From a virus, in the IMG/VR virus record IMGVR_UViG_3300020579_000006, positions 30,865 to 94,864 of that record: 64,000 bases of DNA. One strand, 5' to 3'. A model generated the notes under the pieces. That model made no database searches. It saw nothing but the letters and a program-made list of their open reading frames with translations, and had not been told where the DNA came from. A program made the position numbers and the translations under genes. Below, in pieces: positions 2,327 through 34,395 of the stretch; the first letter of the stretch is position 1; each line of letters starts with the position of its first letter.

Positions 2327-5300
2327 ATTCATAAAATTTATATTTGGGTTGGCATTACTACTCGGGATAACCCTGCCTACTCGTGGCCAAACCAGTTTAA
2401 CAGGCCGTATAGTAGAAGACGTAGCGGCTAATCGTCCCACTACTTGCACGACCGGCGATGTTTATGTAGATACAGATGATGCCAATAGTTGGAGATGCTT
2501 TCCTAATAATGTTTGGGTTAGTTTCGGTGGCGGTTTAGTAAGTCCGATTACTGCTCCTAATCCTTTACAGTTTAATGTCGATTTAATATTTAAAGGTCCT
2601 AATCCTGCGTATGATGCTCGTGTTTCAGGCGTTCGGTCAGTTAGTGTTGGTTCGGTACCGGCTATCCCCGGAACTACCGTATCTATTAATGCCGGTTCTG
2701 CTTCCGCTATAATTTCTAGTTCTTCTGGTTTTCAAACCGGAGACGGCGTTGTTATTTATGGTGCGGGCGTCACTAATCCTATTTCAACCCCTTCCTCCCC
2801 GACTGTTACTCCTGTTAATGCAGTTGGCCTGACCGGCACACTGTTAGACACCGCCAGTCCTAGTGGTTCTACTACCTATCAATATTGTGTAGCAGCCTGG
2901 GGCGGACCTGTCGGCCAAGCAGTTACGGCCTGCAGTGCTAATACTAGTATAAGTACGGGTCAGGCGTCTCTAGGACCGCAAAGTGTTTCGATTACTTCAA
3001 TCGCTAACTCTAATGGTACTTTTTCAATCGTAACATCTTCTGCCCACACAGTTGCGGTGGGTGCTTTAGTGCAAATACGAGGGGCGCTCCCGGCAAATTT
3101 TAACGGATATTTTCGTGTATTAACTGCTGTAGATAACACCCATCTAACCGTAAGTACTTCTTACGATACCCGAAACGGAGCTTTGGTTGCGCCAACCACG
3201 GCAGGCACTTTGACTTGGTGGAATTCTAATAGAATTACAGTCGCCGCCGCTACAGGTTCTAGCAACGGTACTAAGTACCTAGTATACGGCCGTACCTCTG
3301 GTTCTATGACTTTGCTCGGAGTGATGTGGCCACAAAACTCTAATTTTAACACCGACCCCACATATCTCGCTTTTGATGATTACGGACCTACTTTTACTGT
3401 TGCGCCAAACCTGCCGTTTTATATTTCATCTTCCCCTCCTGTTTCCTCTACAAATGACTCTTTAGTTACTACCATTGTTTCTGGACTACCGAGCACCACG
3501 ATTATCTTAGCTGCTACAGCTAGTAATTCGGTGTCTGGTGCTACAATTCTATTCGACGACGGCGTAACACTAGCTGCCGCATCTCTAGCCGCTAAAAACG
3601 AAGGAGCCAAATTAGTACTTCCGGCTGGAGGTACATATCCTATTAACTCGCCAACAACACTCGCTAATAGCGGAGAGCTGGATTACTATGGCGGATTAAA
3701 CCTAAACGAAACTTTAAATATTAGTACGAATACGGTTTCCGGACAATATATCCCAAACGGTTCAGCAGCATCGTTTGGATTGAACCCCTCCCCGGTGATA
3801 AATGTACTTCGCGGTTGGCCCGGATTATACGCCACTAATAACGTCTATCTTCACTATTTAACTATTAGTAGTGGCGAGTCAGCAAATTTATTTATGCAAG
3901 ACGGTGGTACCGGTCAAATTCCGGCCAGTACTTTTGACCGTACACAGTGGACTCTTAGTGGTAACGGGTATACTAGTACCGCACAAGTATTTCGTACTAA
4001 CCATACGAACTCTTTTGCGGATATTTTTTATAGTGGTACACTTCTTACAGCCGGTCAATTAGGTTCCGGTTCCATGTCCACACCTGGAATTTTTTGGAGT
4101 GGGCCGGGAAATCCGGTAATGCGAGATACTTTCCTAAGCGGTAAAGGTATGCTGCTTCGTCCTGCGGTATCGGGTTCGACCTACGTAATGGACTGGGTTT
4201 ATAGTCAAGCTAACTACATGCCGTACTTATCAGTTATTGGCGTGGATGGAGGCGGAGTAGGAATAACCGGAAGAATCAACACCGTTTTATTTGACACTAC
4301 ACAGGCACCGCTAATAGCGAATCTTGGCGGGGTCATTCTCTCCTTAGTGACCGATAGTATTCCAAGTCAAACATTGATTTCTTCTCCTAATAGCGACACC
4401 TCTATCGTAGGTCCACCCGTAGGAAGTCTTGGAACCAATGTTAGTACGATATCAAACGAGCCGACTTTTTTTTCTGTGAACGATGGAACGTTTAATGCGG
4501 GGGTTATTCAGGCTAATCAAGTAACACCACAGTATCCAATTAATTCTTTTGTTCCAATTGGGCCAGCCTTTGCAGTATTTGTTGAAGACCTTCCAGGAAC
4601 TGCCCCTACTTGTTCTGTAGTCAATAGTGGCACTTTCTTTCCGTCGGCGGGCACATGGTTTTTTGAATATGCATATAAATACGCTAATGGAGGAATGGGA
4701 ACTCCTTCGTTTCCGAGTACCGGTTGTACTGTTAACGGGACTAGCCAGGATATAAACGTAGTTTTACCGACAGCTCCTGCTACTATTGGTTTAGGCGCGT
4801 ATATTATGGCGGCAAACGCGGCTAATGGACCTTACTTTTATATTGGAGGGTCAGACCCGACAACCCAAGGAGCCGCTTGGAATGCGTCAACTAACACGTA
4901 TTTATTTTCAGGTTTTGCGTCTATTCCGTCTCCTACATCAGCAGGTTCAGGACCGTCAGGGATAAGTAGTGGTTTAATCTGGGGTAAAGTGGTTTCTATA
5001 GGCTCAAGTACCATTAGTGCCCCGAATAATACAGTTCCCCGCAATTTAACTCTTCCCGATACTTCTGGCACCGTCGGGATTATGACTGGTTCTTTCACCA
5101 ATGCTCACTGTTTACAGGCTAGTGTTATTGGAGGAGTTCTATCAATAGCAGATACTGGCGCTACTTGCGGAAGTGGCGGCGGTGGCGCTACCTTTCAGGT
5201 TAATGGCACTAATACTAGTAGCCAAACTACTATAAATTTTCAAAGTGCTGCTACCTTTAATGGTATAACCGCAGCGTTTTCTAATCCTTCCGCTGGAAAC

Positions 5301-12609: not shown

Positions 12610-12990
12610 GTGGCAAACAGCTATAACAGCAACCCTCTAATTTTCGATACCGATACAACACAGGGTTGGCGTTCATTACAAACTCTTAATACCGGAAACC
12701 TACCTACGACCGCACAACAACTTTCTGGAGCCGTAACTAGACAGTGGGGTGTTCGAGTCACTAAGATTGTTCTAGAGTCTAATGGAACTACTGTTGCAGG
12801 AGTAGTAACAGTAGCAGACCCAAATGATGGAACTATTTTATGGAATTCGGGCGTGGCAGCGGCTGCCGGGGCTACCGGTACCATACTAACACGAGAAGAT
12901 TTTGCTGACCACTTTCCCGCTTGGAGAGATTTTAAGATAACAGGCTTAACCGCGACTGTTACAAAAGTATACATATGGTATAGAAGTTAA
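12610..12990 (+). CDS. putative virion structural protein
   Basis: SD AAGGAG, GTG start, beta-rich 126 aa. Confidence 0.55.
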   Translation: MANSYNSNPLIFDTDTTQGWRSLQTLNTGNLPTTAQQLSGAVTRQWGVRVTKIVLESNGTTVAGVVTVADPNDGTILWNSGVAAAAGATGTILTREDFADHFPAWRDFKITGLTATVTKVYIWYRS

Positions 12991-12999
12991 AGGACTTAT

Positions 13000-13275
13000 A
13001 TGGCTAAAGATAGAGTATCAGAAGTAATGGGTGGAAAGAAATCCAGCAAGAAACCGGCCAAGAAAAAGGGCGGGAAGAAAACCAAAGGTATGCATGTACG
13101 AAAAGCCACTAGCGGTGGTTACATTGCCAAGCATGACGCACCCGAACCCGGTGCGGAGCAGGAAGAACACGCCCTTCCAGACATGGCCGCCCTTCAAGAA
13201 CACATGGCTCAGAATCTACAAGGCGAAGAAGAACCCGGTGGCGGCATGCCCGCACCCGCCCAAGCGATGGCTTAA
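13000..13275 (+). CDS. hypothetical protein, Lys-rich N-terminus and acidic C-terminus
   Basis: 91-aa ORF with SD AAGGA; EVMGGK motif. Confidence 0.65.
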   Translation: MAKDRVSEVMGGKKSSKKPAKKKGGKKTKGMHVRKATSGGYIAKHDAPEPGAEQEEHALPDMAALQEHMAQNLQGEEEPGGGMPAPAQAMA

Positions 13276-13538
13276 TGTCTAGGTTTAAAGCTGCCCGCCA
13301 TGTTCTTGGCGGTAAATCTCGCAAGAAAATTCGTTCAGTTCGTGGTCGCCGAAAGATTAAGAAAACTGTGGATGAGTGGAAAGCGGGAACTCTGCATAGC
13401 GGGTCTAAGACAGGTCCTGTAGTTAAGTCACAGAAGCAAGCGGTCGCAATTTCGCTCTCGCAAGGTCGCAAGCACGTAAGGAAGGGTAGTCCGGAAAATG
13501 AACACAATAGAACCAGCACCTCCGAAACAGGGGTGTAA
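13275..13538 (+). CDS. small basic protein, DUF6496-like
   Basis: EWKAGTLHSGSKTGPVVKSQKQAVAISLS motif. Confidence 0.65.
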   Translation: MSRFKAARHVLGGKSRKKIRSVRGRRKIKKTVDEWKAGTLHSGSKTGPVVKSQKQAVAISLSQGRKHVRKGSPENEHNRTSTSETGV

Positions 13539-13616
13539 GCCAGTAAATGGAAGCTGTCCGGTTTTGGAAACCGGTGTCGCAAGACTTTAGAGGTTCGAGT
13601 CCTCTCACCCCTACCA
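13529..13616 (+). tRNA. tRNA-Pro (TGG), atypical
   Basis: Acceptor AGGGGTG/CACCCCT, anticodon arm CCGGT-TTTGGAA-ACCGG, extra variable hairpin GTC-GCAA-GAC, T-loop TTCGAGT, ACCA end. Confidence 0.8.
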
Positions 13617-13620
13617 TCTT

Positions 13621-13695
13621 TGCTCTGGAGAACCGGCAGTTCAAGCAAGCCTCATAAACTCGCCTCCGTGGGTTCGACTCCCACCCGAGCAACCA
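13621..13695 (+). tRNA. tRNA-like gene with CAT anticodon (fMet-like, degenerate anticodon stem)
   Basis: TGCTC.../...GAGCA-A-CCA acceptor, D-stem GAAC/GTTC, loop CTCATAA, T-arm GTGGG-TTCGACT-CCCAC. Confidence 0.6.
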
Positions 13696-13710
13696 TCTTA
13701 AAGGCAGAAA

Positions 13711-15573
13711 ATGGAATATGTAGAGTTTTCAGATGACGAACTATACGAAAAAATGGCGGACGTTAGACAGAAGTTTCCTCCTAAAGATACCGCTGAATTT
13801 GAAAACTACAAAAAGCTATTACCTCTGACCGACTTAGGAAAAGAAGTCCGCCGTAGGGCGGAGACAGATTTATTCTTTTTTGCTAAGTATTTTATAGGTT
13901 ATGACAATCAGAAAAATGACATGATTGTTGACCATGTTCACCGCCGGTTGTGTGAACTGTTCGTAAAAAAAGATAAATCAAAAGATATTAAAAGTCAGGA
14001 CACCCGCAAGGAAAGACTTGTTCTTTATCCTCGCGGAAGCTTAAAAAGTACCATAGATGTCATAGACGCGGCCCAATGGATTCTGAATTTTCCTAATATC
14101 CGAATCCTGTTCCTGACTGCTGCCGATGACCTAGCTGTTGGTTTCGTAGACCAGTTAAAGAACTTTTTTATTATCAGAATGGATTCTCCGAGTTTTATGA
14201 ATCTGTTCTTTCCCGAGTTTTGTATACCGGATACTAAAACCGCACTAGGGAGCGCGTTTACTTTTAACTGTCCTAAGCGCACTATCTTTGACGATAAAGA
14301 TTCTACAGTCAGAGCACTGTCCGTTCTTTCGACCGGTTCGGGTTTTCACTTTGACGTAATGAAAGCTGACGACGCGGTATCTGACCGTAATTCTGAAAAC
14401 GAAGAACAGTGCATCAAAGTAACTAAAAAGATTAATCTAGCTCGCAAGATGCTGATGGCTTGGGGTTTTTTCGACCGTATCGGAACCCGGTATCACGAAA
14501 TAGACAACTACGGACAGACACTTGAAAAAGAACTTATTGGCGAAGTCGAACGCCATAGCGGACCTTGTTGGGAACAGATAGACGTAAAATCGTCCGGTTT
14601 GCGGATTTTAATTGGCCGCGCTATTGTTCTGAAACCCGGCAACGAAAATAAGACTTATGGTGATGCAGGCGAAGAAGGCTGTAATCTTCTGTTTCCTGAA
14701 TACATGAGTTTTAGTTGGCTGATGAATGAACTCCATAAAGACGAGTTTATTTTTGAAGGCCAGTTAAACCAGAATCCCCGCCCTAAAAGCCACATTACTT
14801 TTGACCGGCCTTTACTTCTAAGTCATACAGTTCCTTTTAAAGAACTTCCGGTAAACGGACCAATTGCTATAACCTGGGATTTTGCTTTCAGTCAGAAAAA
14901 AGACCGGGACTATAGTACAGCAGCAGTTGGTATTTGGAACGACAAAGGCCAGCTTTTCATTTTAGATTTAGTCCGGGCTAAATTTAATCACACTACCTTA
15001 GCAAAAGCCATAGTTGATTTAGCAGCACACTGGCATCCTATGATTATAGGAATTGAGGATGCTGCGGGTTCTAGATTCCTCGAACCTACTATTATTAATG
15101 AAGCTCGTAATCGCGGAATGGCAGATGTACTAGCTATCTGTAGTAAGATAGACTGGTTTCCGCCGGAACAACAGAAAGATGCTAAGAAATCGCGTATGGC
15201 AGCCCTTCATCCTTGGCTGGTTAACAACATGCTTTATTTCGCTGCCCATCTTCCGTATCTGGAAATTCTTTACAGCGAGTTTGAGAAGTGCTTAGTCAGT
15301 CATCATCACGACGATATACCAGACGTGATTTCTCAGCTTCCTCGTTACGCACCTCGCATGAATAATATGATTGCTAAGAATGAAGTCGTGACGATGACGC
15401 GCGAGGAAGCCGCGTTTAATTTAATGTTTAATGAAGGAACCGACCCATATGGCCGAATTGGTCTGGGTTTTGTACCTCAACCTTTAACACCCAGTATTAC
15501 AGATGTAGGACCAGAAGCGCAAACACCTCATGGAGACCTAGCACCATTACTCGGGGCCGGGTTATGTGGATAA
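13711..15573 (+). CDS. terL: terminase large subunit
   Basis: Walker A-like PRGSLKST, GFHFDVMKADD Walker B, IGTRY coupling motif, nuclease TWDFA...DYS...HDDIPD. Confidence 0.92.
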   Translation: MEYVEFSDDELYEKMADVRQKFPPKDTAEFENYKKLLPLTDLGKEVRRRAETDLFFFAKYFIGYDNQKNDMIVDHVHRRLCELFVKKDKSKDIKSQDTRKERLVLYPRGSLKSTIDVIDAAQWILNFPNIRILFLTAADDLAVGFVDQLKNFFIIRMDSPSFMNLFFPEFCIPDTKTALGSAFTFNCPKRTIFDDKDSTVRALSVLSTGSGFHFDVMKADDAVSDRNSENEEQCIKVTKKINLARKMLMAWGFFDRIGTRYHEIDNYGQTLEKELIGEVERHSGPCWEQIDVKSSGLRILIGRAIVLKPGNENKTYGDAGEEGCNLLFPEYMSFSWLMNELHKDEFIFEGQLNQNPRPKSHITFDRPLLLSHTVPFKELPVNGPIAITWDFAFSQKKDRDYSTAAVGIWNDKGQLFILDLVRAKFNHTTLAKAIVDLAAHWHPMIIGIEDAAGSRFLEPTIINEARNRGMADVLAICSKIDWFPPEQQKDAKKSRMAALHPWLVNNMLYFAAHLPYLEILYSEFEKCLVSHHHDDIPDVISQLPRYAPRMNNMIAKNEVVTMTREEAAFNLMFNEGTDPYGRIGLGFVPQPLTPSITDVGPEAQTPHGDLAPLLGAGLCG

Positions 15574-15574
15574 T

Positions 15575-16016
15575 ATGGAAGATAAAAGAAATCGACTCAC
15601 TACAAAAGCTGTGGTCTATGACGATTTAGATACAGACGAAATAGAGATTAAAATAGTATTGAAAGAAGGAAAAACCTCTAAGGATTGTAGTCCATTTGTA
15701 ATGGAGAGAGTGTTACTCAATCATATGTTTCGCAGTTGGCCAACTTGGTGGGAATATTGGATGAAACCAGGAAGTACACTAGGATAATATGGAACATGAA
15801 ACGCCAGACAGTTTTATTGTGAACCCCCCAGTAGGAAACTCGAACTTAGAGTTCAGAGCGGAGTGCATAAAGTATGTGGAGCCGTACGTACGAGAAAACG
15901 GTATCCCACTCGACTGGAATAAATTTAATGCATTAGTTTTCGACGGTTCTTTAGAAGGAATTGTTTCAGGAGACCCTGAAGTAATAGAAAAATCTTTACA
16001 TAAGATGAAAGAATAG
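15575..16016 (+). CDS. two small hypothetical proteins (15575-15787 and 15789-16016)
   Basis: Tandem ORFs on the operon strand. Confidence 0.5.
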
Positions 16017-16549
16017 TCTTTAAAATATATTTGGTTACTAACATTGTTAATGGCAAAGTCTATGTTGGCAAAACAGGTCAGACCATAGATGCTAGATGGA
16101 AAGAACATCTTAAATTGGCCAGACTAAACTATCCTTCTTACTTTTACAGAGCAATGAGAAAATATGGACCGGATATGTTTAAGGTAAGAGAAATAGATTG
16201 TGTAGAGACCAACGAACTTGCTAACGTACGAGAAACTTACTGGATAACTCAAGTCTTCAAATCCCACTGTTCGGAAAACGGATATAATTCAACACTTGGT
16301 GGAGAGGGAGTTATAAGAAACGAAGAGTCAGAAAGAAAAAGAATAGATGCCCTACAAGGTAGAAAAGTTTCTGAGGAAACTAGAAGAAAAATTAGCGTTG
16401 CAAATTCAGGGAGAAAATTTTCTGATGAACACAGAAAGAAATTAAGTGATGCAAAATTAGGGGACAAACACCCTCTTTTTGGTAAGCATCATTCAGAAGA
16501 AACTCGTAAGAAGATGAGTAAAACTCACCTACGACGACAAGAGTTATAG
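16013..16549 (+). CDS. GIY-YIG homing endonuclease with NUMOD3 repeats (probable non-AUG start)
   Basis: FKIYLVTN...KVYVGKT, GYN..LGG, HSEETRKKMS; in-frame TAA at 16001 and no ATG/GTG/TTG before the first Tyr motif. Confidence 0.85.
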   Translation: MVFKIYLVTNIVNGKVYVGKTGQTIDARWKEHLKLARLNYPSYFYRAMRKYGPDMFKVREIDCVETNELANVRETYWITQVFKSHCSENGYNSTLGGEGVIRNEESERKRIDALQGRKVSEETRRKISVANSGRKFSDEHRKKLSDAKLGDKHPLFGKHHSEETRKKMSKTHLRRQEL

Positions 16550-21217: not shown

Positions 21218-22909
21218 ATGAGTTATTCTCCCGCGAGTATTCAGACTTCCGGTGCGCTTCCTAACTTGGTTGCGATTTACTACGAACGTCAGAGTATTCC
21301 TAACCTGAAGGCCCAAACACCCTTCTTATCCATGACTATTTAAGCTGCTTGGTCATGCAAACCGAAGTGGTAGATATTGAAGCAGAAACCACTTCCGCTA
21401 CGGTCAGGAAATCAGATTCAATTTTTCACCTATGCTCTATTGGCGGCTAATACCAACCAAGCGGCAGAAGGTACTGTTGGGTCTCCAATTTCCGAAAGCT
21501 CCACTAAAATCATAGCGACAATTGGTCAGTTGAAATCATCGGCTGACTTTAAATTTGGCTATATCCGTTAACCCCTTATTAGCATCTAATATAAGAAGAG
21601 ACGGAGGTAAGATTCCAATGGCTATTATAAGTAAAACGAAATGGGCATACGTCGCCGCAATGGTGGACGGAGAAGGTCACATTTCCATAGCAGGGACCAA
21701 ATCAGGGCAAGGCTATAAAGGCAAACCCTATTGGTTAATAGATTGTAAGATTGGTATTTCAAACACTTCTGTGGAACTAATGAAGTGGCTAAAAGAGAAT
21801 TTTGGCGGCGAATATCATGACGGTGGACAAGGTTCTAGAAGAATTTGTTATAGATGGAACCTTCAAAACTACAAACAAATGGAAAAATTTGTTCTTGCAA
21901 TCCTGCCTTATATGGTTATTAAGAGAAAACAGGCACTTTTAGCTCTTGAGTTTTTTCGTATGTTTGGGCAGAAAAACCCGGCTAAACGATTAGAACTAGC
22001 TAGAAGATGCCAAGCTCTTAATAGAGGAATAACCCCAGAGACTAATACGCCAAACCCGGTTTTAGAACCGGTGAAGATAGAGTCCGAACTTACTAGTGAT
22101 AGTAAGAGTGCAGCAGTAGTGATACTGCCAGATAACGTCGATTTTAAAGTACGCTATCTTACCGCAGAAAACTCGGTAGCCTAAACACATTTGACGCTGA
22201 CTTTATTAACAGTTCCGACCTAGCTATGGACGTAGCGATTGACGACCCGTCGTTACTTCAGAACCTAGCAACCGAACTAAATTATCGCCTTGCTCTTACC
22301 CTCAACTCGCTCGTTCAGCTTACCTCTGACAGCGCGGTTGGTGTTGATGGCACGGTTAACATCCAGTTAGCAAACGGTTCATACCTTACTGCTAACAACC
22401 TCCGTACCGCTACTCAGCAATTGGCTGGCGTAAATGCCCGTCCACTTACTAAGGACGGTTACTGGGGCGGAATTATCCATCCGTTCGTTGTACACGACGT
22501 GCTAAACGACACGTCCGTCAATGGATTGACTGACATCCTAAAGCGCAACGGTGATTCAGCACAAAAACTATTTGCGCCCCTGTCAAACGAGGAAGTTATC
22601 GAGTTCGCTGGCTGCCGTTTCAAACAGACCACGACCGCACCTTCCGTAACCATCTCCAGCAACACGTACTACAATACGTATATTTATGCTGATGATGCCC
22701 TCTTTAGTGTCTTCCTTGGAAAAAATCCTGAGTCCGGTGAAAAGAACTACCGACTTATGATACAAGAAGCTCCTAGCCAGGGTTCAGTGAGCGACCCCGC
22801 ACGACAGATAGGAGGTTGGGTTTCGTACAATGTTAAGTATACCAACACTCTTCGTCCCGGTTCCACTATGGTTCTTCGACGCCTACAATCGGAAACTTCG
22901 AGTTCGTAG
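21218..22909 (+). CDS. major capsid protein (N4-gp56-like), join(21218..21337,21380..21530,22194..22909), 328 aa
   Basis: Joined reading MSYSPAS...IYYERQSIPNLKAQTPFLSMT|KQKPLPLRSGNQIQFFTY...AEG...ATIGQ|YADFINSSDLA... gives a continuous HK97-fold MCP pattern; 987 nt, in frame. Confidence 0.85.
21338..21379 (+). mobile_element. 42-nt core-less group I-like mini-intron in MCP
   Basis: In-frame TAA and TAG; follows U, ends in G; GGTCATG pairs 5' exon CATGACT with U.G at the junction; CTGCTT pairs 3' exon AAGCAG. Confidence 0.75.
21531..22193 (+). mobile_element. group I self-splicing intron in MCP
   Basis: P1 GTCAGT/GCTGAC with U.G; P3 TTTGGC/GCCAAA; R-like CAGAGACTA; S-like GAAGATAGAGTCC; terminal G; splice restores TAC (Tyr). 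Confidence 0.9.
21618..22184 (+). CDS. intron-encoded LAGLIDADG homing endonuclease
   Basis: SD GGAGGT; WAYVAAMVDGEGHI, ISNTS, FGG, ILPYMVIKRKQA motifs. Confidence 0.88.
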   Translation: MAIISKTKWAYVAAMVDGEGHISIAGTKSGQGYKGKPYWLIDCKIGISNTSVELMKWLKENFGGEYHDGGQGSRRICYRWNLQNYKQMEKFVLAILPYMVIKRKQALLALEFFRMFGQKNPAKRLELARRCQALNRGITPETNTPNPVLEPVKIESELTSDSKSAAVVILPDNVDFKVRYLTAENSVA

Positions 22910-23592: not shown

Positions 23593-24624
23593 ATGTATAA
23601 ATGCTTTGTTCTACACAGCATGAGTTCTCTTCTCCAACGAGCATATTGGAGAAGTATAAACGAGTTTTTTGAAGTACAACCGCATCATTTAGCGTTTAAA
23701 GAACATAGAATTAGCGAATTTGGAAACTGCCAGAGATGTGGCTGGCGTCCTAAAGTAAAGGAGTAACATGACTTAGTAACCAATGGAGGTTTCTATGTCA
23801 CGGTCATATCGTCGGCCTGCTAGCGCAATTACTACGTGTAATAGTGCGAAACAGGATAAGATTTTAGCTCATCGTGGAGTACGTCGGGCGCAAAACCATG
23901 CTCTACGTACCTGTCAAGATTGGGACGAGTTGTTAATTCCCCATAAATACGAGTGTTCTTGGAACGAAACGTATTGTTGGGGTCGAGACGGAAAACAAAG
24001 ATTATATTTTCTATCTGATTTTGAATACCTATGGGTTCACCCAATCACAGGAATAATTGAACCGTTACATGAAAATGGAGCGGAAATGTTTGCAGCACTA
24101 AAAAGAAAATAGCAAAAAGCATATCAGAAGGATAATTAGAAATGGCGCATCCTAAAGAACATCTAGTATACGACTCCAGAGGGGTTGTTACTTACAATAC
24201 AGAGACTAACGGCCAGTTGACATTGGGGCATTTGTCCCCGGAAGTTTTACGCGACCTAGCCCGCAATGAAGCCGCCAGTCATGAATGGCGGAAAGCTGCT
24301 GTCGAGTTGCTGCTGGAAAAACAACACCCGCACGCTAACCATCCTGAGTTGCGCGAACTAGTGTTTCAGATTAAAGCTGAAAAAGAAGCTCGGGTTGAAG
24401 TCGAAGCTTTGGCTGCCGAAGCCAAGCATGAAGAACCATTTGCTAATGACCAGACTGCGGAAGCTTTGGTTGACGAGTTTATAAACCAGCCAGAAGCTCG
24501 GGCCGAGTTAGTGAAGGAAGAAGCGGTTCCAATTGAGGAGCACCCGTTTTTTAAACAAAGTCCGGTTTCCGGACAATGTGAAGCTCAAGATATCGAATCC
24601 TTGGAAAAACTCGCAATAGAATAA
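23593..24624 (+). CDS. three hypothetical proteins (23593-23766, 23795-24112, 24142-24624)
   Basis: Tandem ORFs; SD GGAGG before 23795 and AAGGA before 24142. Confidence 0.55.
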
Positions 24625-27317: not shown

Positions 27318-28049
27318 ATGTTTAAAATATATCTGGTTCATAATCTGGTTAACGGTAAAGTTTATATAGGTAAGACTTCTCTAACTATTGCCGAACGTTG
27401 GGCAGAACATTTAAAAAGAGTGAAGAATGGTTCGAGTTTTTACTTCCACAACGCTATCCGAAAACATGGGCCAGATATGTTTAAACTTAGAGAAATCGAC
27501 CTGTTAGAAACCGAAGATTCAGCTAACAAGCGCGAAATTTACTGGATAACGGAGATTTTTAAATCCCATTGTCCGGAAAATGGATACAATCTTACTCTCG
27601 GTGGAGATGGAGTTAGCCCCAACGAAAACACCAAAAACAAAATTCGTAACTCCAAAAAAGGTCATAAATCTTATAACTACATTCACAACATGACCGAAGA
27701 AACTCTTAGAGAGTTATTTGATAAACAAAACTTAAATATCACTCAGATATCCGAAATATTTGGTTGCGCGATTTCCACTGTTTGGTCTAGATTAAAACTT
27801 TTGGGTTTAGATACACATAAAAACACTTATACTAGAAAAAGAACGTTTCCCGGAAGAGTGCTGTCTGAAGAACATAAAACAAAATTGAGTGCGGCTTTTA
27901 AAGGCGAAAAACACCCTTTTTTTGGTAAACATCATTCTGAAGAAGCTAAACAAAAAATGCGAGTCGCTAAACTAGGAAAACATCTATCGGAAGAACATAA
28001 AAAACATATAGGTGAATCTCTATTACAGAGAGCAAATGCCGTCAACTAA
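27318..28049 (+). CDS. GIY-YIG homing endonuclease with HTH and NUMOD3
   Basis: MFKIYLVHN...KVYIGKT, GYNLTLGG, HSEEAKQKM. Confidence 0.85.
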   Translation: MFKIYLVHNLVNGKVYIGKTSLTIAERWAEHLKRVKNGSSFYFHNAIRKHGPDMFKLREIDLLETEDSANKREIYWITEIFKSHCPENGYNLTLGGDGVSPNENTKNKIRNSKKGHKSYNYIHNMTEETLRELFDKQNLNITQISEIFGCAISTVWSRLKLLGLDTHKNTYTRKRTFPGRVLSEEHKTKLSAAFKGEKHPFFGKHHSEEAKQKMRVAKLGKHLSEEHKKHIGESLLQRANAVN

Positions 28050-28761
28050 TACTTTACTAAGAGCTGTGAATTTAAGTTCGGCATTTTGCAACTTGAGACC
28101 GCTAACCGGAATAGGCGGGTTCATTGACGAACCGGCGTTCTCTATAGGAGATTGGTGTCGCCAATTTATTTTAGGCCCGCCGTTCTCTTGGAGATGGAAT
28201 CGTACTTTTGTTCAGTTTGCTCTATCTCCTGGGGTACAAGACTATCCGCAGAATCTCCCACTATTTGGCTGGATGGAAAAAACCACTATTTTTGATAGCA
28301 CAGTGAATCCGAGTGTTACTAAAGAATTAAACGTAAAGCTGAATTTAGGAGAAAGTTCCGTCATTGAATCTCCGGTAGAAGTTTCTCCTCGACTAGATGA
28401 TGATAATGGAAATATAACGTTCCGTTTCATGCCGGTACCCGATAAAGCGTACACAGCGGTAGTTACCTATCAGATGGCCGCTCCTATATTTAAAAGTATT
28501 AACGATACTTGGGCACCTATTCCGGACTATCTTTCGTATCTTACTAACCAAGGATTCCTAGCTAAATCTTACGAGTTCATTAATGATGAACGTTGGGGTC
28601 CAGCTATGCAGTTATTTGTCCGTCAAGTCATAGCGGCTAATCAAGGTCTTTCAGATTCTGAGGTTAATATCTTTCTAGGCGAGAGACTCGATAGCGCTCG
28701 CCAACAGCAAAACGTACTTGGTAATAATCAATCTGCCCGACAGGGTAGAGGAGCCTTCTAA
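28036..28761 (+). CDS. putative head-tail adaptor (tail tubular A-like), paralog 1
   Basis: Position; WRWNR, GVQDY, FRFMPVPDKAY pattern of podovirus adaptors. Confidence 0.6.
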   Translation: MPSTNTLLRAVNLSSAFCNLRPLTGIGGFIDEPAFSIGDWCRQFILGPPFSWRWNRTFVQFALSPGVQDYPQNLPLFGWMEKTTIFDSTVNPSVTKELNVKLNLGESSVIESPVEVSPRLDDDNGNITFRFMPVPDKAYTAVVTYQMAAPIFKSINDTWAPIPDYLSYLTNQGFLAKSYEFINDERWGPAMQLFVRQVIAANQGLSDSEVNIFLGERLDSARQQQNVLGNNQSARQGRGAF

Positions 28762-30041
28762 TCGCTACTACTATAAATCTTCAGCAAATAATTACAAGTG
28801 CTCGCGCTTATCCTGAATTAACAGTAGTATTGGGTACAAGCGGTTGGGAACGGGAACCCGCATTAACTATCGCTAATGATGTAATGCAGCGGTTTCTAAG
28901 CAATCAACTCGACTGGAAATTTAACCGGTCGAACGTACCGCCTTTTCTGACCGTAGCTCTCCAACAAGATTACGTAATGAATGTAGTAGACCTTTCGTGG
29001 TTAGAACAAATGTGGCGGGTTGATATTAATAATAATCAAAACCCACAAGGTCCTAAACCGATTTTTGCTATGGAAGCGGTCAGAGATTTACAGCAGACGG
29101 CTTATCAGGCTACTCCTTTTAATTGTTCGTGGGTACCTAATTACTTGGCCGTCATGGGTGTATGGCAAGCTAATACACTTTATCAATCCGGATATGGACA
29201 GGCGCAAACCCCTGCTTCGCCACTTCAGCAGTTTAGAGATGTTAACGGAAACATACTTTTTATAGACAGCGGTTCACTCGGCTTAAATATTAGCAGTCCC
29301 GGCGTATCCGGTAGCGGAGGTTCTGTACCTCTACCCCCTGGAAACCCGTATGGTATTAGTGGGTCTATCCAACCATCTCTCCCGCCTAATTCGTGGGCAG
29401 CTATAAGTTCCGTGTCTATTTCCGGTAACATAGCTACATACATCGCTAATAACAATTTCATAGCCGGACAAAGCGTTACAGTTAATGGTATTCGTGGAAA
29501 CGGTTCGGTTTTTAATGTTATTAACCAACCTATTACTAGTGCTACTCCTACTCAATTTCAAGTAGCTATCAATAATGGCAACATGACATTACCCTCTGTT
29601 TCTGAAACCGCTAGTGCAGGTCTAAACGTAATCGACGGCACTGTTCGTTGGACTGTTGCTAACCCTAATGGAGTAGCAATGCGAGTAGCACCTTTACCAG
29701 CGTTTTCCGGCATTACTTGGCTGTTATTTCCAGTTTATCAGCGCAAACCGCCCATACTTACTTCTCTACAACAACTGATATCCCCTATTCCGGATGAATA
29801 TGGATATCTTTTTCGTCAGGGGTTTATCGCACTTTGTAAAGAGAACGCAGGGTCTAAAGACTCGCGAGATGCTTATTTAAAATGGGAAGAAATGATTATG
29901 AACGCTCTGCGGTCAGGAGACCGGGAACGCGAGCAAGCGAGTTTCTATCCGACCGAAGGTTTAGTTAGTGGTAGTAGTGGTGGTTATTACCAAGGCATAC
30001 CCATCGGGCCGGGTTTCCCATATAGTCCTTATCCTTTCTAA
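28761..30041 (+). CDS. putative head-tail adaptor paralog 2 with inserted beta domain; AUC start
   Basis: SD AGAGGAG 7 nt before ATC 28761; gap-free N-terminal alignment with paralog 1. Confidence 0.65.
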   Translation: MATTINLQQIITSARAYPELTVVLGTSGWEREPALTIANDVMQRFLSNQLDWKFNRSNVPPFLTVALQQDYVMNVVDLSWLEQMWRVDINNNQNPQGPKPIFAMEAVRDLQQTAYQATPFNCSWVPNYLAVMGVWQANTLYQSGYGQAQTPASPLQQFRDVNGNILFIDSGSLGLNISSPGVSGSGGSVPLPPGNPYGISGSIQPSLPPNSWAAISSVSISGNIATYIANNNFIAGQSVTVNGIRGNGSVFNVINQPITSATPTQFQVAINNGNMTLPSVSETASAGLNVIDGTVRWTVANPNGVAMRVAPLPAFSGITWLLFPVYQRKPPILTSLQQLISPIPDEYGYLFRQGFIALCKENAGSKDSRDAYLKWEEMIMNALRSGDREREQASFYPTEGLVSGSSGGYYQGIPIGPGFPYSPYPF

Positions 30042-30072
30042 CCCTTTTATTTTCAGTAACTTACAGACAAAA

Positions 30073-30726
30073 ATGAACCGTATAGAAAAAGAAAAACAAA
30101 TAATCTCAAATCTGAAGTTTTGTATTAGTTGTGAAATTTCTAAACCCATCAATATGTTTAGTATTAATAATACTACTTGGGATAGCGTTCTCTATCAATG
30201 TAAACAATGCCGAAGAGAATATGAACGGTCAAAATGGGTGATGAGCGATAAAACTAAAAAGTTTAGACTAAACCAAGAAATGCAAGTTATGCTGGGAATG
30301 AAAACTTGTACTTGTTGCGGACAACCAAAACCTTTGAATATGTTTCATAATAACAGGGATAAATGGGATGGATTAGTAGATGCTTGTAAACCCTGTAACA
30401 GATTAAAAGTTAACAAGTGGCGCAAGGATTTTCCTGAAAAAGCTAAAAACGCAGATATCAAAAAGAACTACGGTATTACACTATCTGACAAACTTAACAT
30501 GCTCGAATCTCAAGGTCGAGTTTGTGCCGCCTGTGGCACCGACCAACCCGGTGGTAAATACAACGAGTGGCATATAGACCATAATCACGCTACAGGAAAA
30601 GTAAGAGAACTTCTTTGCGCCGACTGCAATATGGCTCTCGGGGTTGTAAGAGAAAGCATCCCTCGTTTAGAAGGACTTGTCCGGTATATGAACAAACACA
30701 CTCAAGCGGCGGTGGTTTATTCCTAA
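30073..30726 (+). CDS. endonuclease VII-type HNH homing endonuclease
   Basis: YGIT...QGRVCAAC...IDHNHATGKVRELLCADCN; N-terminal Zn fingers. Confidence 0.85.
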   Translation: MNRIEKEKQIISNLKFCISCEISKPINMFSINNTTWDSVLYQCKQCRREYERSKWVMSDKTKKFRLNQEMQVMLGMKTCTCCGQPKPLNMFHNNRDKWDGLVDACKPCNRLKVNKWRKDFPEKAKNADIKKNYGITLSDKLNMLESQGRVCAACGTDQPGGKYNEWHIDHNHATGKVRELLCADCNMALGVVRESIPRLEGLVRYMNKHTQAAVVYS

Positions 30727-31801
30727 GACCATAAGCGGAAATTTTCAGTTCCCAGACGGCACTCCAGCCGCCAATGCTATCTTGTATCTAAAATTATCTC
30801 AAGATGCTATAGCTACGGGTATTAGTCAAATAGCCCCTCGGGTTTTAGCGATTGGTCTAAATTCTCTTGGACAAATTCCTGCTGGTACTACTATCTATGC
30901 TAATGACGAATTGACGCCTAGTGGTACGGTTTACATAGCGTCAGTCATAGCTCCGGGTGGAGGTTTAGTCTATGGACCCGAACTTCTTGCTCTTATTGGC
31001 ACATCTCCCATTAATTTGAACAGTTTAATCCCAACCAATGTTGGAGGAATAGTGATTAGTTTTCCAAGTCCGGTTTTACAGAATCCATCGGCTCCGCAGA
31101 CAATTACTGGTCAGTCTCTGACCTTAACTAACACTGCACCACTTTTTGTAAACAGTGCTCTTACTTTCGCCAATCTTATTTCTAATTCTCCGAGTCCTGC
31201 TCAGTCTGGAAATATTCGCCTAGCTAGTGCAGACGCTATTAGCTGGAGAAATATTGGCGGTACCGGAGACTTAAGTCTCAGTAAAAATAATTTAGACCAG
31301 TTAGTATGGCCTACTGGATTTATAATCGCTAACACCATTATTAATAGCGGCGGCATAATAAGCAATTACGCAGGTGTAAATACTGTAGCAAACGGGGTAC
31401 CGAGCGAGGTAGCTGCCGTAAATCTGACTGCTCAAACTGCCGCTATTGCTACTACTACTTTATTTTTTTTAACCCCTTTATTTGTAGCTTCTGGTCAATA
31501 CCGACTATCCTGGAACGCCAAGGTAACAACCGCCGCAGGCACTAGTTCTACTCTCGGCGCGTTAACTATAGTATACACAGACCCCGATGGAGTAGTACAA
31601 ACCATTACGGCGGCTGCCCTGTCTCACGCAGGAGCAGTAGAAACAACGGATACCGGTAACTCGACTACTACAGTTTTACTCGGCATTCCTATACTAATGA
31701 ACTGTAAGGTTAGTACTTCAATAACATATGCTTTCGCGTACGCTAGTAACGCCGCCGCAGCGATGAACTATAATCTAAATCTTCTCTTAGAGAGAATCTA
31801 A
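30719..31801 (+). CDS. putative tail fibre protein; AUU start
   Basis: GGCGGTGG SD-like then ATT-CCT-AAG giving MPKTISGNFQFPDGTPAANAILYLKL; C-terminal domain resembles that of the 2316 protein. Confidence 0.6.
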   Translation: MPKTISGNFQFPDGTPAANAILYLKLSQDAIATGISQIAPRVLAIGLNSLGQIPAGTTIYANDELTPSGTVYIASVIAPGGGLVYGPELLALIGTSPINLNSLIPTNVGGIVISFPSPVLQNPSAPQTITGQSLTLTNTAPLFVNSALTFANLISNSPSPAQSGNIRLASADAISWRNIGGTGDLSLSKNNLDQLVWPTGFIIANTIINSGGIISNYAGVNTVANGVPSEVAAVNLTAQTAAIATTTLFFLTPLFVASGQYRLSWNAKVTTAAGTSSTLGALTIVYTDPDGVVQTITAAALSHAGAVETTDTGNSTTTVLLGIPILMNCKVSTSITYAFAYASNAAAAMNYNLNLLLERI

Positions 31802-34395
31802 TCTCGGACCCTGCCATTTTACAATTAGAAGGGTCACAGCCTAAAACGGCTGTGCGTTTCGTACCGCTATCTTTACAGAAGTTTTTTACTGGTTTATGGA
31901 CCCAACGCTCTCCTTTTAATTCGCCAGACAATCGCTATAATACCCGGTTTCTTGGCGGTCGGCCAGAACTTTTGACCGACGGATTGAACGTAGAGATTAC
32001 TAACTACGGTACTATAATCCGCCGTCCGGGAACTGTACAATATTCTACTGCGGTTTTATCGTCTAAAGGTCTTGCTTTTTATTCATTTCACGACTTAACC
32101 GGCGCTATCCGAGTTATGGCAGATACAGTTTTAGATGTCTCAGTTTTAACTTCTACTAGTGACACGGTTATTTTTACTAAGACGGCTGGTTCAGGTCAAA
32201 CAGATTTTATAGGAGTTGGCAACACACTTTTTTTTGGTGATGGTATAGACCTTCAGGCATACCAGCCAAACAATAACCCGGCGGCAACCCGTAACTGGGG
32301 AATAGCTATTGGTTCCATGAATGATGCGGTTGGGCCAACTATTGCTGGTACTGGTACTAACGTCACAAGAACCGGGTTTGCTACTAACTGGACTAATCCA
32401 AACAATGTTACTGCTACAGATACTGTAAATTTTGCAGTAGGAACTGCAAACACTAATTACTTATTTGCTAGTAATTTCGGGTTTTCTATACCTTTTACAA
32501 GTGTTATTAATGGTATACAAGTTAGTTTTTCAGGGTTTAGAGGCTCAACAAACGCAGGTCTTCCTATAGATGTACAGTTAGTAAAAAATGGTAGCCCTGT
32601 AGGAACAATAAAAAACACAAGACTTAACCCTACCCAAAGTACTTACACTTTAGGAGGTACTTCTGATTTATGGGGCACTACTTGGTCTCCTAATGACATC
32701 AGTCAGAGTACTTGGGGGGTTTATTTTTTCATTCCCGGTTCTGCTCTTTTAAGCGCTAACATAAATAATGTTCAGGTAACTATATTCGGCACCGGCGGGC
32801 CTACCGTAGTTCTGCAAACAGGAAACGGTACTCTTGATACCTTTAACGGCGGTTGGGAATATGTAATAGCCTACGGGAATTCAGTTTCCGGACATATCTC
32901 GAATCCAACTTCAGCTTCTGCATCAACAGGTAATTTTGGTGGTCAGGGCTTTGTAAATACTTCGGGTACAGCGGTTACACTGGTTTCAGGTGCGAATTTT
33001 ATACAGGGTTCTACTTGGAACGGTCGTACTATAGTTATTAACGGTACTAATTTTACCGTTTCTGCTGTTACTGGTCCAACTACTCTAACATTAACCACAT
33101 CTGCCGGTACTTTGACGGACGTAACTTATTTAGTTGGTTATGCGGGCGTACAAGTAGATTTAGTAGCTAGTACCGACCCGCAAGTAAATCAGATTCACGT
33201 ATATAGAACCAAAGACGGTGGTAGTGTATTCTATGAGTTGCCGACATCTCCTTACCCGAACACTACCCAAAATATTATAGATACTTCTACAGATGCCGGG
33301 CTACAGCAACTTATATTCTGGCCATTTGTTCCCACGCTTTCTAATACTCCTCCTCCTGCCGGTTTAGTACATTACGTTTATCATCTTGGGAGAATCTGGG
33401 GAGTAGTAGGTAATTTCGTTTATTACTCCGCCGGTCCTGACGTTCTACTAGGCAGCGGTAACGAATCGTTTCCACCAGCTAATAGTTTTCTGTTTCCTTC
33501 CACTGTAGTACGACTAGTACCCATATCCAGTGGTTTATTGGTTTTTACTACAGATGATACTTATATTATCCTTGGTACTAACACAGCTACTTTCTATGCT
33601 ATGCCGTTTCAACTCGGATTAGGTATATTAGGTTATAACGCTTTAGATGTACAAGGTAGTAATATTTTCCTTTACACATCTGACCGTCAGTTTATACAAA
33701 TGACTTCGGCGGGCATTAACCAAATAGGTTATGCTATTGGAGATACCCTCCAGGCTCAATTCGACCCAACCACCGATATCCACGTAGCTTCGTTAATTCA
33801 AGGCACTTTCGACCAAGCGGTTTTTATTGGCGATGCCGTCGGTAGTTGGTATCGTTGCAATTGGAATCAACCGCCCGAAGGCGGTCCTGCATTTAGTCCT
33901 AAAGCACTTATCACAAATGGGTTTACACATTTTCAACAAGTAGAAACATCTCCGGGTTTTCACCAACTTTTAATGTTTCAGAACTTAGGTGCTCAATCTA
34001 TAGTTCTTTATCGAGACCCCAATACTTTTACCGATAACGGCACTTCTTACGGAGCTTTCCTGACTGTTGGTTCTATAGTTTTAGCTCAACCCGGCCAACT
34101 AGCCGAAGTAGTTAGCATTACTACTGAGTTACAACAACGTGGTACCCAACCCGCAGTTTCGGTACTGTTAGAAGAAATAGCAGGTAACTTTGAAGTCCTT
34201 CCAAACGGAGTACCTGACCCTCCTGGGTTAGTACCTAGTAACAGTGTTCTTGCTCAAAGATTTTATCTTACTCAATCCCAAAATACCGTAGACTGTCGTC
34301 ACCTACAAATTAAACTACAATTTATTCCTGAACCGTTTAAAAACGAATTGCTTACCCTAAGTATTTGGGGAGCATTAAAATATACTGGCGGTTAA
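31801..34395 (+). CDS. putative tail nozzle/tubular B-like protein; probable AUC start
   Basis: LTDGLNVEI...RRPG N-terminal motif, propeller-like C-half; frame open to ATC overlapping upstream TAA. Confidence 0.65.
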   Translation: MSDPAILQLEGSQPKTAVRFVPLSLQKFFTGLWTQRSPFNSPDNRYNTRFLGGRPELLTDGLNVEITNYGTIIRRPGTVQYSTAVLSSKGLAFYSFHDLTGAIRVMADTVLDVSVLTSTSDTVIFTKTAGSGQTDFIGVGNTLFFGDGIDLQAYQPNNNPAATRNWGIAIGSMNDAVGPTIAGTGTNVTRTGFATNWTNPNNVTATDTVNFAVGTANTNYLFASNFGFSIPFTSVINGIQVSFSGFRGSTNAGLPIDVQLVKNGSPVGTIKNTRLNPTQSTYTLGGTSDLWGTTWSPNDISQSTWGVYFFIPGSALLSANINNVQVTIFGTGGPTVVLQTGNGTLDTFNGGWEYVIAYGNSVSGHISNPTSASASTGNFGGQGFVNTSGTAVTLVSGANFIQGSTWNGRTIVINGTNFTVSAVTGPTTLTLTTSAGTLTDVTYLVGYAGVQVDLVASTDPQVNQIHVYRTKDGGSVFYELPTSPYPNTTQNIIDTSTDAGLQQLIFWPFVPTLSNTPPPAGLVHYVYHLGRIWGVVGNFVYYSAGPDVLLGSGNESFPPANSFLFPSTVVRLVPISSGLLVFTTDDTYIILGTNTATFYAMPFQLGLGILGYNALDVQGSNIFLYTSDRQFIQMTSAGINQIGYAIGDTLQAQFDPTTDIHVASLIQGTFDQAVFIGDAVGSWYRCNWNQPPEGGPAFSPKALITNGFTHFQQVETSPGFHQLLMFQNLGAQSIVLYRDPNTFTDNGTSYGAFLTVGSIVLAQPGQLAEVVSITTELQQRGTQPAVSVLLEEIAGNFEVLPNGVPDPPGLVPSNSVLAQRFYLTQSQNTVDCRHLQIKLQFIPEPFKNELLTLSIWGALKYTGG

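Follow-up and report, generated by a model that had tools for sequence, protein, structure and literature searches.

The AUU start codon of infC is conserved and forms part of a proven autoregulatory loop. In Escherichia coli, initiation at AUA, AUC, AUU, or CUG reaches 1–2% of the level obtained with AUG and yields an N-terminal Met, and infC and pcnB are the only confirmed natural cases named (Hecht et al., bioRxiv 10.1101/063800). A different kind of weak start is described for gene VII of phage M13, a low-copy virion protein made wholly by re-initiation at a defective site, in a manner sensitive to initiation factor 3 (IF3; PMC2268962). Among the papers available for searching, none was a phage-specific report of ATT or ATC start codons. 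Here we describe a 64,000-nt stretch of DNA (the window, bases 30865–94864 of the 94,864-bp IMG/VR virus record IMGVR_UViG_3300020579_000006) from an uncultured soil phage, in which three adjacent tail genes, P0001, P0002, and P0003, are probably translated from AUC, AUU, and AUC, respectively; we assign this reading of the sequence a probability of roughly 0.7.

The likeness to infC and pcnB lies in an ATH codon (ATA, ATC, or ATT) at the Met1 position behind a Shine-Dalgarno (SD) sequence, and an efficiency of ~1–2% of AUG, together with discrimination by IF3, would be expected here as well. The phage genes differ from infC in that their orthologs do not keep the ATH codons, they are not tied to a known regulator, and the change concerns three neighboring virion genes at once; a non-AUG codon shared among relatives, which for infC is a sign of regulation, was not found. 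With the M13/f1 gene V–gene VII pair, the phage genes share a low-copy virion protein as product, a start that abuts the upstream stop, and an intrinsically poor initiation site. In M13, however, the codon is AUG and the defect is a missing SD, whereas the genes described here combine a weak codon with an SD that is strong at two of the three sites; the M13 output depends on upstream translation, a dependence that may by analogy extend to the genes described here. The gene order (adaptor paralogs, fiber, nozzle) resembles that of SU10/T7 podovirus tails, and the likeness may extend to an SU10_adaptor signal in the upstream adaptor-like gene P0004 and in homologs of P0001, and to the nozzle chains of SU10, T7, and P22 that are the top matches of P0003. 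The differences from these tails are a very low sequence similarity, with a sub-threshold Pfam hit and a structural match obtained from a low-confidence model, and the presence here of two adaptor paralogs and of interspersed homing endonucleases.

The three genes form part of the late structural region and are transcribed rightward (Table 1). Their stop-start arrangements read TAATC, ATTCCTAA, and TAATC. The TAA at 28759–28761 that ends P0004 shares a base with ATC 28761–28763, and the TAA at 31799–31801 likewise shares a base with ATC 31801–31803; ATT 30719–30721 is preceded by GGCGGTGG (30708–30715) and TTT, and is placed 5 nt ahead of the TAA (30724–30726) that stops the upstream HNH gene. 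An earlier annotation of this DNA (hereafter, the sequence-only reading) had proposed as starts the ATC at 28761, in TAATC and 7 nt after AGAGGAG, the ATT at 30719, and the ATC in TAATC at 31801, and all of these elements are present as it described them. All ATH sites fall −8 to +3 nt from the upstream stop; genome-wide, 31% of same-strand gene pairs lie that close. Read from stop to stop, the three frames begin at 28749, 30692, and 31774 and contain no ATG, GTG, or TTG before 28830, 30782, and 31852, respectively, leaving start-less 5′ stretches of 27, 30, and 26 codons from the opening of the frame (23, 21, and 17 codons when counted from the ATH codon). In all three frames, the stretch from the preceding stop to the ATH codon is thus free of canonical in-frame starts. 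Both ATC starts have the heptamer TCTAATC in common (28757–28763 and 31797–31803), two bases beyond TAATC, which may be chance. A frameshift that would fuse these genes to their upstream neighbors was considered and rejected: GCC-TTC-TAA offers no slippery site, and the genes of relatives are separate, each with its own ATG.

Table 1. Positions in the window of the genes, start codons, and SD elements discussed in the text.
Feature	Position	Strand	Start or motif	Remarks
Adaptor-like gene P0004, upstream paralog	28036..28761	+	ATG	Orthologs of relatives have ATG at the same place
SD of P0001	28747..28753	+	AGAGGAG	7 nt before ATC 28761; −8.3 kcal/mol, top 1.6% of random positions
Second adaptor-family gene P0001	28761..30041	+	ATC 28761–28763	426 codons; TAATC overlap
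Downstream codon in P0001	28830..28832	+	TTG	Start of gene callers, 403-aa product P0009; SD absent, +0.4 kcal/mol
Free-standing HNH (Endonuclease VII type) homing endonuclease	30073..30726	+		Pfam PF02945, 72.9 bits; last 8 nt overlap the fiber start
SD-like element of P0002	30708..30715	+	GGCGGTGG	Followed by TTT, then ATT; −9.5 kcal/mol, top 1%
Tail-fiber-like gene P0002	30719..31801	+	ATT 30719–30721	360 codons
Downstream codon in P0002	30782..30784	+	TTG	Start of gene callers, 339 aa (P0129); SD absent, +1.2 kcal/mol
Nozzle-like tail gene P0003	31801..34395	+	ATC 31801–31803	864 codons; TAATC overlap
Downstream codon in P0003	31852..31854	+	GTG	Start of gene callers, 847 aa (P0249); weak SD, −2.7 kcal/mol
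GIY-YIG homing endonuclease	16013..16549	+	ATA 16013	Possible fourth case; ATA overlaps upstream TAG 16014–16016

Homolog sets were assembled for the adaptor paralog P0001 (119 proteins), the fiber gene P0002 (~20), and the nozzle-like gene P0003 (53 hits), and the DNA of relatives was compared at 49 loci from IMG/VR and JGI metagenomes, which came from alignment-based scans of viral contigs, and in Tunturiibacter phage Tunturi_3. A single-protein scan of viral contigs yielded nothing, megablast against GenBank phages gave 0 matches, a protein search of known phages returned Tunturi_3 as the sole match (35% identity), and a PHROGs search gave no useful hit. Across the 50 loci, and with the exception of one nozzle ortholog (L048, below), the orthologs have ATG, or in a few cases GTG or TTG, at the ATH position or a few codons away from it, and Met1 of the orthologous proteins lies correspondingly; in L011, the nearest IMG/VR relative, the codon is ATG in all three genes. 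This is the comparison that the sequence-only reading had called for, and its outcome agrees with the proposal that the ATH codons occupy the Met1 position.

Met1 stands at offset 0 in 70 of the 119 P0001 homologs, nearly all of which begin M-A-S/T-T, and most of the remainder have an N-terminus longer by a few residues; the N-terminus of P0014 is MATTITVQQIVTSARAYPEL, as compared with IATTINLQQIITSARAYPEL for P0001 in the window. The codon matching ATC 28761 is ATG in L005, L006, L009, L011, and L022. The closest relative, P0010 (76% identity), begins LATT at the same position; since JGI protein records show TTG and GTG starts as the letters L and V, its start would be a leucine codon, presumably TTG. 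Within the P0001 extension, T4, R15, Y17, and P18 are invariant or nearly so among homologs, and a start at TTG 28830 would remove 23 conserved residues. The N-terminus also aligns without gaps to that of the upstream paralog P0004 (ATG 28036), for which the translations and the match quoted in the sequence-only reading proved correct, and the paralogy of the two proteins is also recovered by search (E = 1.3e-5). In a related strain, P0343 is 97% identical to P0009, the adaptor protein called in the window.

Homologs of P0002 begin MPKT (P0130, P0131) or MKT (P0132, P0137), at offset 0 or −1. The codon matching ATT 30719 is ATG in L011, L032, and L042 and GTG in L035, and within the extension K3 is invariant and G7 nearly invariant. 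For P0003, 33 of the 53 protein hits begin at most three residues from ATC 31801, and G11 is invariant or nearly so; the N-terminus of P0253, MSDPALLQLEGSQPK, corresponds to ISDPAILQLEGSQPK in the window (MSDPALLQLEGSQPKSA and ISDPAILQLEGSQPKTA, respectively, when a longer stretch is compared), and L011 has TAATG where the window has TAATC (31799–31803). At one further locus (L048; Ga0335069_10312845, 1093–1140), the nozzle ortholog carries ACG in place of ATG, in the context GAGGAG-TAA-CCC-ACG-CCC, with the next canonical start 21 codons past the ACG; this codon is a putative second, independent near-cognate start in the nozzle family. In all three genes, the extensions are conserved to the same degree as the rest of each protein. 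Residues upstream of the TTG and GTG codons are thus conserved, and the pattern that the sequence-only reading had named as contradicting it, with conservation beginning only at those downstream codons, is not what the alignments contain.

SD strength was taken as the energy of the duplex with the anti-SD; among random positions, the 5th percentile of this energy lies at −6.4 kcal/mol. The energies at the ATC, ATT, and ATC codons are −8.3, −9.5, and −3.5 kcal/mol, as compared with +0.4, +1.2, and −2.7 kcal/mol at the downstream TTG, TTG, and GTG. The SD before ATC 28761 exceeds in strength those of all 23 distinct orthologous starts, and the SD before ATT 30719 those of all 9; the strong SDs of the adaptor and fiber genes look like compensation for the weak codon. 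RNA folding near 28761 and near 30719 is no different from that of shuffled sequences (z −0.9 and +0.4, respectively). In the nozzle-like gene, a hairpin at 31836–31853 (ACAGCC-UAAAAC-GGCUGU) pairs two bases of GTG 31852, and the 120-nt region that contains this hairpin is more stably folded than shuffled sequences (z −2.4).

Two soil runs, each from a different study, yielded Logan contigs (depth 11.4 and 18.4) that match the window across positions 28600–32000 with 0 differences in 3401 bases; one of these runs may be the source sample. In a third run (X3), pieces identical to the window span ATC 31801. Gene calls in Logan and ENA equal those of JGI, the printed first letter aside. Because the Logan contigs and gene calls agree with the window, an assembly error at the three start codons is excluded at the contig level; the independent assemblies show no ATG at these positions, where an ATG would have spoken against the sequence-only reading. 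Among RNA runs, none is listed as a holder of the stretch.

P0001, P0002, and P0003 most likely encode an adaptor paralog, a fiber, and a nozzle of a podovirus-type tail. P0004 matches Pfam SU10_adaptor (PF24175) with 25.6 bits, slightly below the 27-bit cut-off; P0001 itself gave no hit to PF24175, and many of its homologs have a precomputed match to this family. The AlphaFold model of the adaptor paralog is poor (predicted local distance difference test score, pLDDT, of 41), and residues 7–24, modeled as two helices, are among its better-predicted parts. The N-terminus of P0002 is similar to that of Tunturi_3 gp15, annotated as "tail fiber protein," and it is on this N-terminal likeness that its most likely assignment as a fiber rests. 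The P0003 model is likewise of low confidence (mean pLDDT 51); nearly all of its top 17 Foldseek hits are podophage tail or nozzle chains (E 7e-9 to 1e-5, TM-scores 0.1–0.25), with matches to the nozzle/hub chains of Pan3, Pa223, SU10, P22 gp10, Sf6, and T7 gp12. A search of PDB sequence profiles gave no match. In T7 and SU10, adaptor, fiber, and nozzle parts are present in roughly 6–18 copies per virion.

These data suggest a scenario in which AUG would have become AUC, AUU, and AUC, each by a third-base change, in genes that are otherwise intact and functional. Initiator fMet-tRNA would pair imperfectly with AUC and AUU, giving near-cognate initiation as in E. coli infC and pcnB, and in the adaptor and fiber genes its efficiency would be lifted by an SD stronger than that of any ortholog. 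As each start lies on or next to the upstream stop, ribosomes that end the upstream gene would be delivered to the adjoining start by translational coupling or re-initiation, and this placement makes coupling a reasonable helper, for the nozzle gene above all. The reduced output of tail proteins may be tolerated because few copies are needed per virion; a role for low output in the stoichiometry of the low-copy adaptor-, fiber-, and nozzle-like parts is plausible. We infer initiation at the ATH codons, help from coupling, and a low output that is tolerated or useful. The ATH state is probably lineage-specific and recent rather than an inherited design, and the data fit better with a tolerated state, perhaps mildly advantageous, that is buffered by strong SDs and coupling. 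Near-cognate initiation is known but rare, and its occurrence in these genes is, judging by the relatives compared, most likely peculiar to one phage lineage.

Several points weigh against initiation at the ATH codons. The SD before ATC 31801 is weak (−3.5 kcal/mol), weaker than those of two thirds of the orthologs, and only 3 nt separate GGTGG from ATT 30719. The ATH codons are conserved in no relative seen, which gives no sign of purifying selection on them; they may represent a recent, mildly deleterious state.

Translation may instead begin at TTG 28830, TTG 30782, and GTG 31852, producing proteins that are 23, 21, and 17 residues shorter and leaving the upstream stretches as remnants. Gene callers chose these codons in the JGI, Logan, and ENA assemblies, and some homologs are also called short (P0113, P0096, and P0072 at −22; P0024 and P0088 at −13; P0252 at −24). 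We nevertheless regard these starts as unlikely: the two TTG codons are without an SD (+0.4 and +1.2 kcal/mol), GTG 31852 has at best a weak one (−2.7 kcal/mol) and lies partly in a hairpin, while the residues that would be lost, among them the invariant T4, Y17, and P18 of the adaptor paralog and K3 of the fiber, are conserved over dozens of homologs. The extensions, moreover, show no decay relative to the remainder of the protein, and in the low-confidence adaptor model residues 7–24 form two helices that belong to its better-predicted parts. Sequencing or assembly error, with ATG as the true codon in each gene, might be suspected in a contig derived from a metagenome, yet the Logan contigs of two runs from different studies are identical over 3401 bases, independent Logan and ENA gene calls yield the same truncated products, and it is implausible that each of three errors should have hit a start codon; we give this explanation almost no weight.

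If the start changes were damage, the tail genes would be crippled, and the phage would be a declining variant or one rescued by the tail parts of co-infecting relatives. That no relative shares the ATH codons is what recent deleterious mutations would produce, and related strains do coexist in the same soils (a divergent endonuclease-less variant in X3, and P0343). Random decay is, however, an improbable source of three independent start-codon hits in neighboring genes whose 1650 codons bear no further lesion; all three changes are at the third base and to the best near-cognate class, two of the three are paired with the strongest SDs of their families in what looks like compensation, and the genome is present at a depth of 11–18 in two samples. 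We hold it equally improbable that the starts are an evolved regulatory device, whether a tail regulon that reports the IF3 or growth state of the host as infC does or a generally relaxed start selection. The three genes do stand side by side in one module, IF3 discriminates against such codons (PMC2268962), and a homing-endonuclease gene may use ATA; against this stand the lack of conservation of the ATH codons in relatives, the 0 cases in two related genomes, the canonical starts of about 135 other ORFs (open reading frames), P0004 included, and the absence from the genome of an IF3 domain and of an initiator-like tRNA. The sequence-only reading had gone further and supposed a systematic use of near-cognate starts, to set low-copy tail stoichiometry or to sense IF3 status, or a relaxation of start-codon selection during infection. 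Systematic use is unsupported: the cases amount to three genes and one candidate ATA start among about 140 ORFs, P0004 and most other genes of the genome start at ATG, and the relatives whose DNA or protein was seen (up to 76% identity) carry ATG, TTG, or GTG, with the ACG of L048 as the exception. No evidence for IF3 sensing was found in the genome, which holds neither an IF3 domain nor an initiator-like tRNA, nor was any found here for relaxed selection. A stronger version of translation from the ATH codons, in which the whole tail-tip module moved to AUH as an adaptive translational rheostat that caps output or ties it to host IF3 or growth state, is doubtful, as is its corollary that the level is set by strengthened SDs and stop-start coupling in a de novo, module-wide change rather than by three tolerated mutations.

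In each assembly of this phage, the three structural proteins are called 17 to 23 conserved residues short by standard gene finders, and annotation and structure prediction for such phages would therefore be systematically wrong at these genes. With initiation at the ATH codons, the locus would be a clean natural example of AUG lost jointly from three neighboring essential virion genes, and it would provide a test bed for how far a strong SD and translational coupling buffer weak start codons. Whether phages set virion stoichiometry by weak starts could be learned from it as well.

Within a greedy set of 149 ORFs, only these three long ORFs have a start-less 5′ stretch of 26–30 codons that abuts the upstream stop. 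A homology-based census of the 62 ORFs with homologs flags the three genes and, besides them, the second exon of the capsid gene, which is split by an intron, and a false positive at 24582, where the ATG agrees with relatives; in the three genes, 30 of 31, 9 of 9, and 43 of 43 subjects align upstream of the first canonical start. The same census flagged 0 ORFs in two related genomes (G001 and G002, 96 and 94 kb).

A possible fourth case is the GIY-YIG homing endonuclease gene at 16013, the product of which matches Pfam GIY-YIG and NUMOD3. Its SD (−1.5 kcal/mol) is a weak one. TTG 16031 (index 9), the first canonical codon, falls within the conserved strand of the GIY motif, relatives begin at index 4, and the paralog at 27318 begins ATG-TTT-AAA-ATA-TAT; because of the position of the TTG and the start of the paralog, the sequence at 16013 probably begins at ATA. 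Phage-encoded help for weak starts was also considered and rejected, as the genome contains no IF3_C domain and none of its five tRNAs (Val, an odd "Ile-UAU," Gly, Asp, and Pro) is initiator-like. The ARAGORN prediction "tRNA-Ile(UAU)" lies at 4003–4096 of the genome on the minus strand, 26.8 kb before the start of the window; it is 94 nt long, its variable arm is long, its anticodon stem has six pairs, and initiator hallmarks are missing; it is odd for Ile and may be misassigned.

The HNH gene between the adaptor-paralog and fiber genes is absent from an allele in run X3, where a 151-nt contig fuses 30060 to 30717 and skips 656 nt; the HNH gene is therefore a mobile insertion at this site. 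This contig has no listed difference from the joint to 30753, and ATT 30719 is apparently retained. In L011, ~580 nt lie between the orthologous adaptor-paralog and fiber genes, and a related upstream gene is apparent there, with a similar 3′ end (...VAAV and stop). A homing endonuclease as the cause of the ATT is unsupported, given that the endonuclease-less form in X3 has no listed change at the ATT; it is also disfavored by L011, which has ATG despite the apparent related gene at the same site, and neither ATC gene adjoins an endonuclease.

Homing endonuclease genes are unusually dense in the structural module, between positions 16004 and 35335 of the window, with GIY-YIG genes at 16013 and 27318, a LAGLIDADG-type gene at 21534, and HNH genes at 30073 and 34973. 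The major capsid gene is interrupted (21534–22196), and homology resumes at ~22196, past the LAGLIDADG-type ORF (21534–22184); an Rfam group I intron match at 21781–22106 scores 30.3 bits (E 3.8e-5), under the gathering score. In G001 (L056:12868–15160), the capsid ortholog matches in at least four pieces (12868–13152, 13860–13988, 14657–14863, and 15083–15160) and a LAGLIDADG-like ORF occupies 13265–13798, an arrangement that suggests several introns in the capsid gene of this relative.

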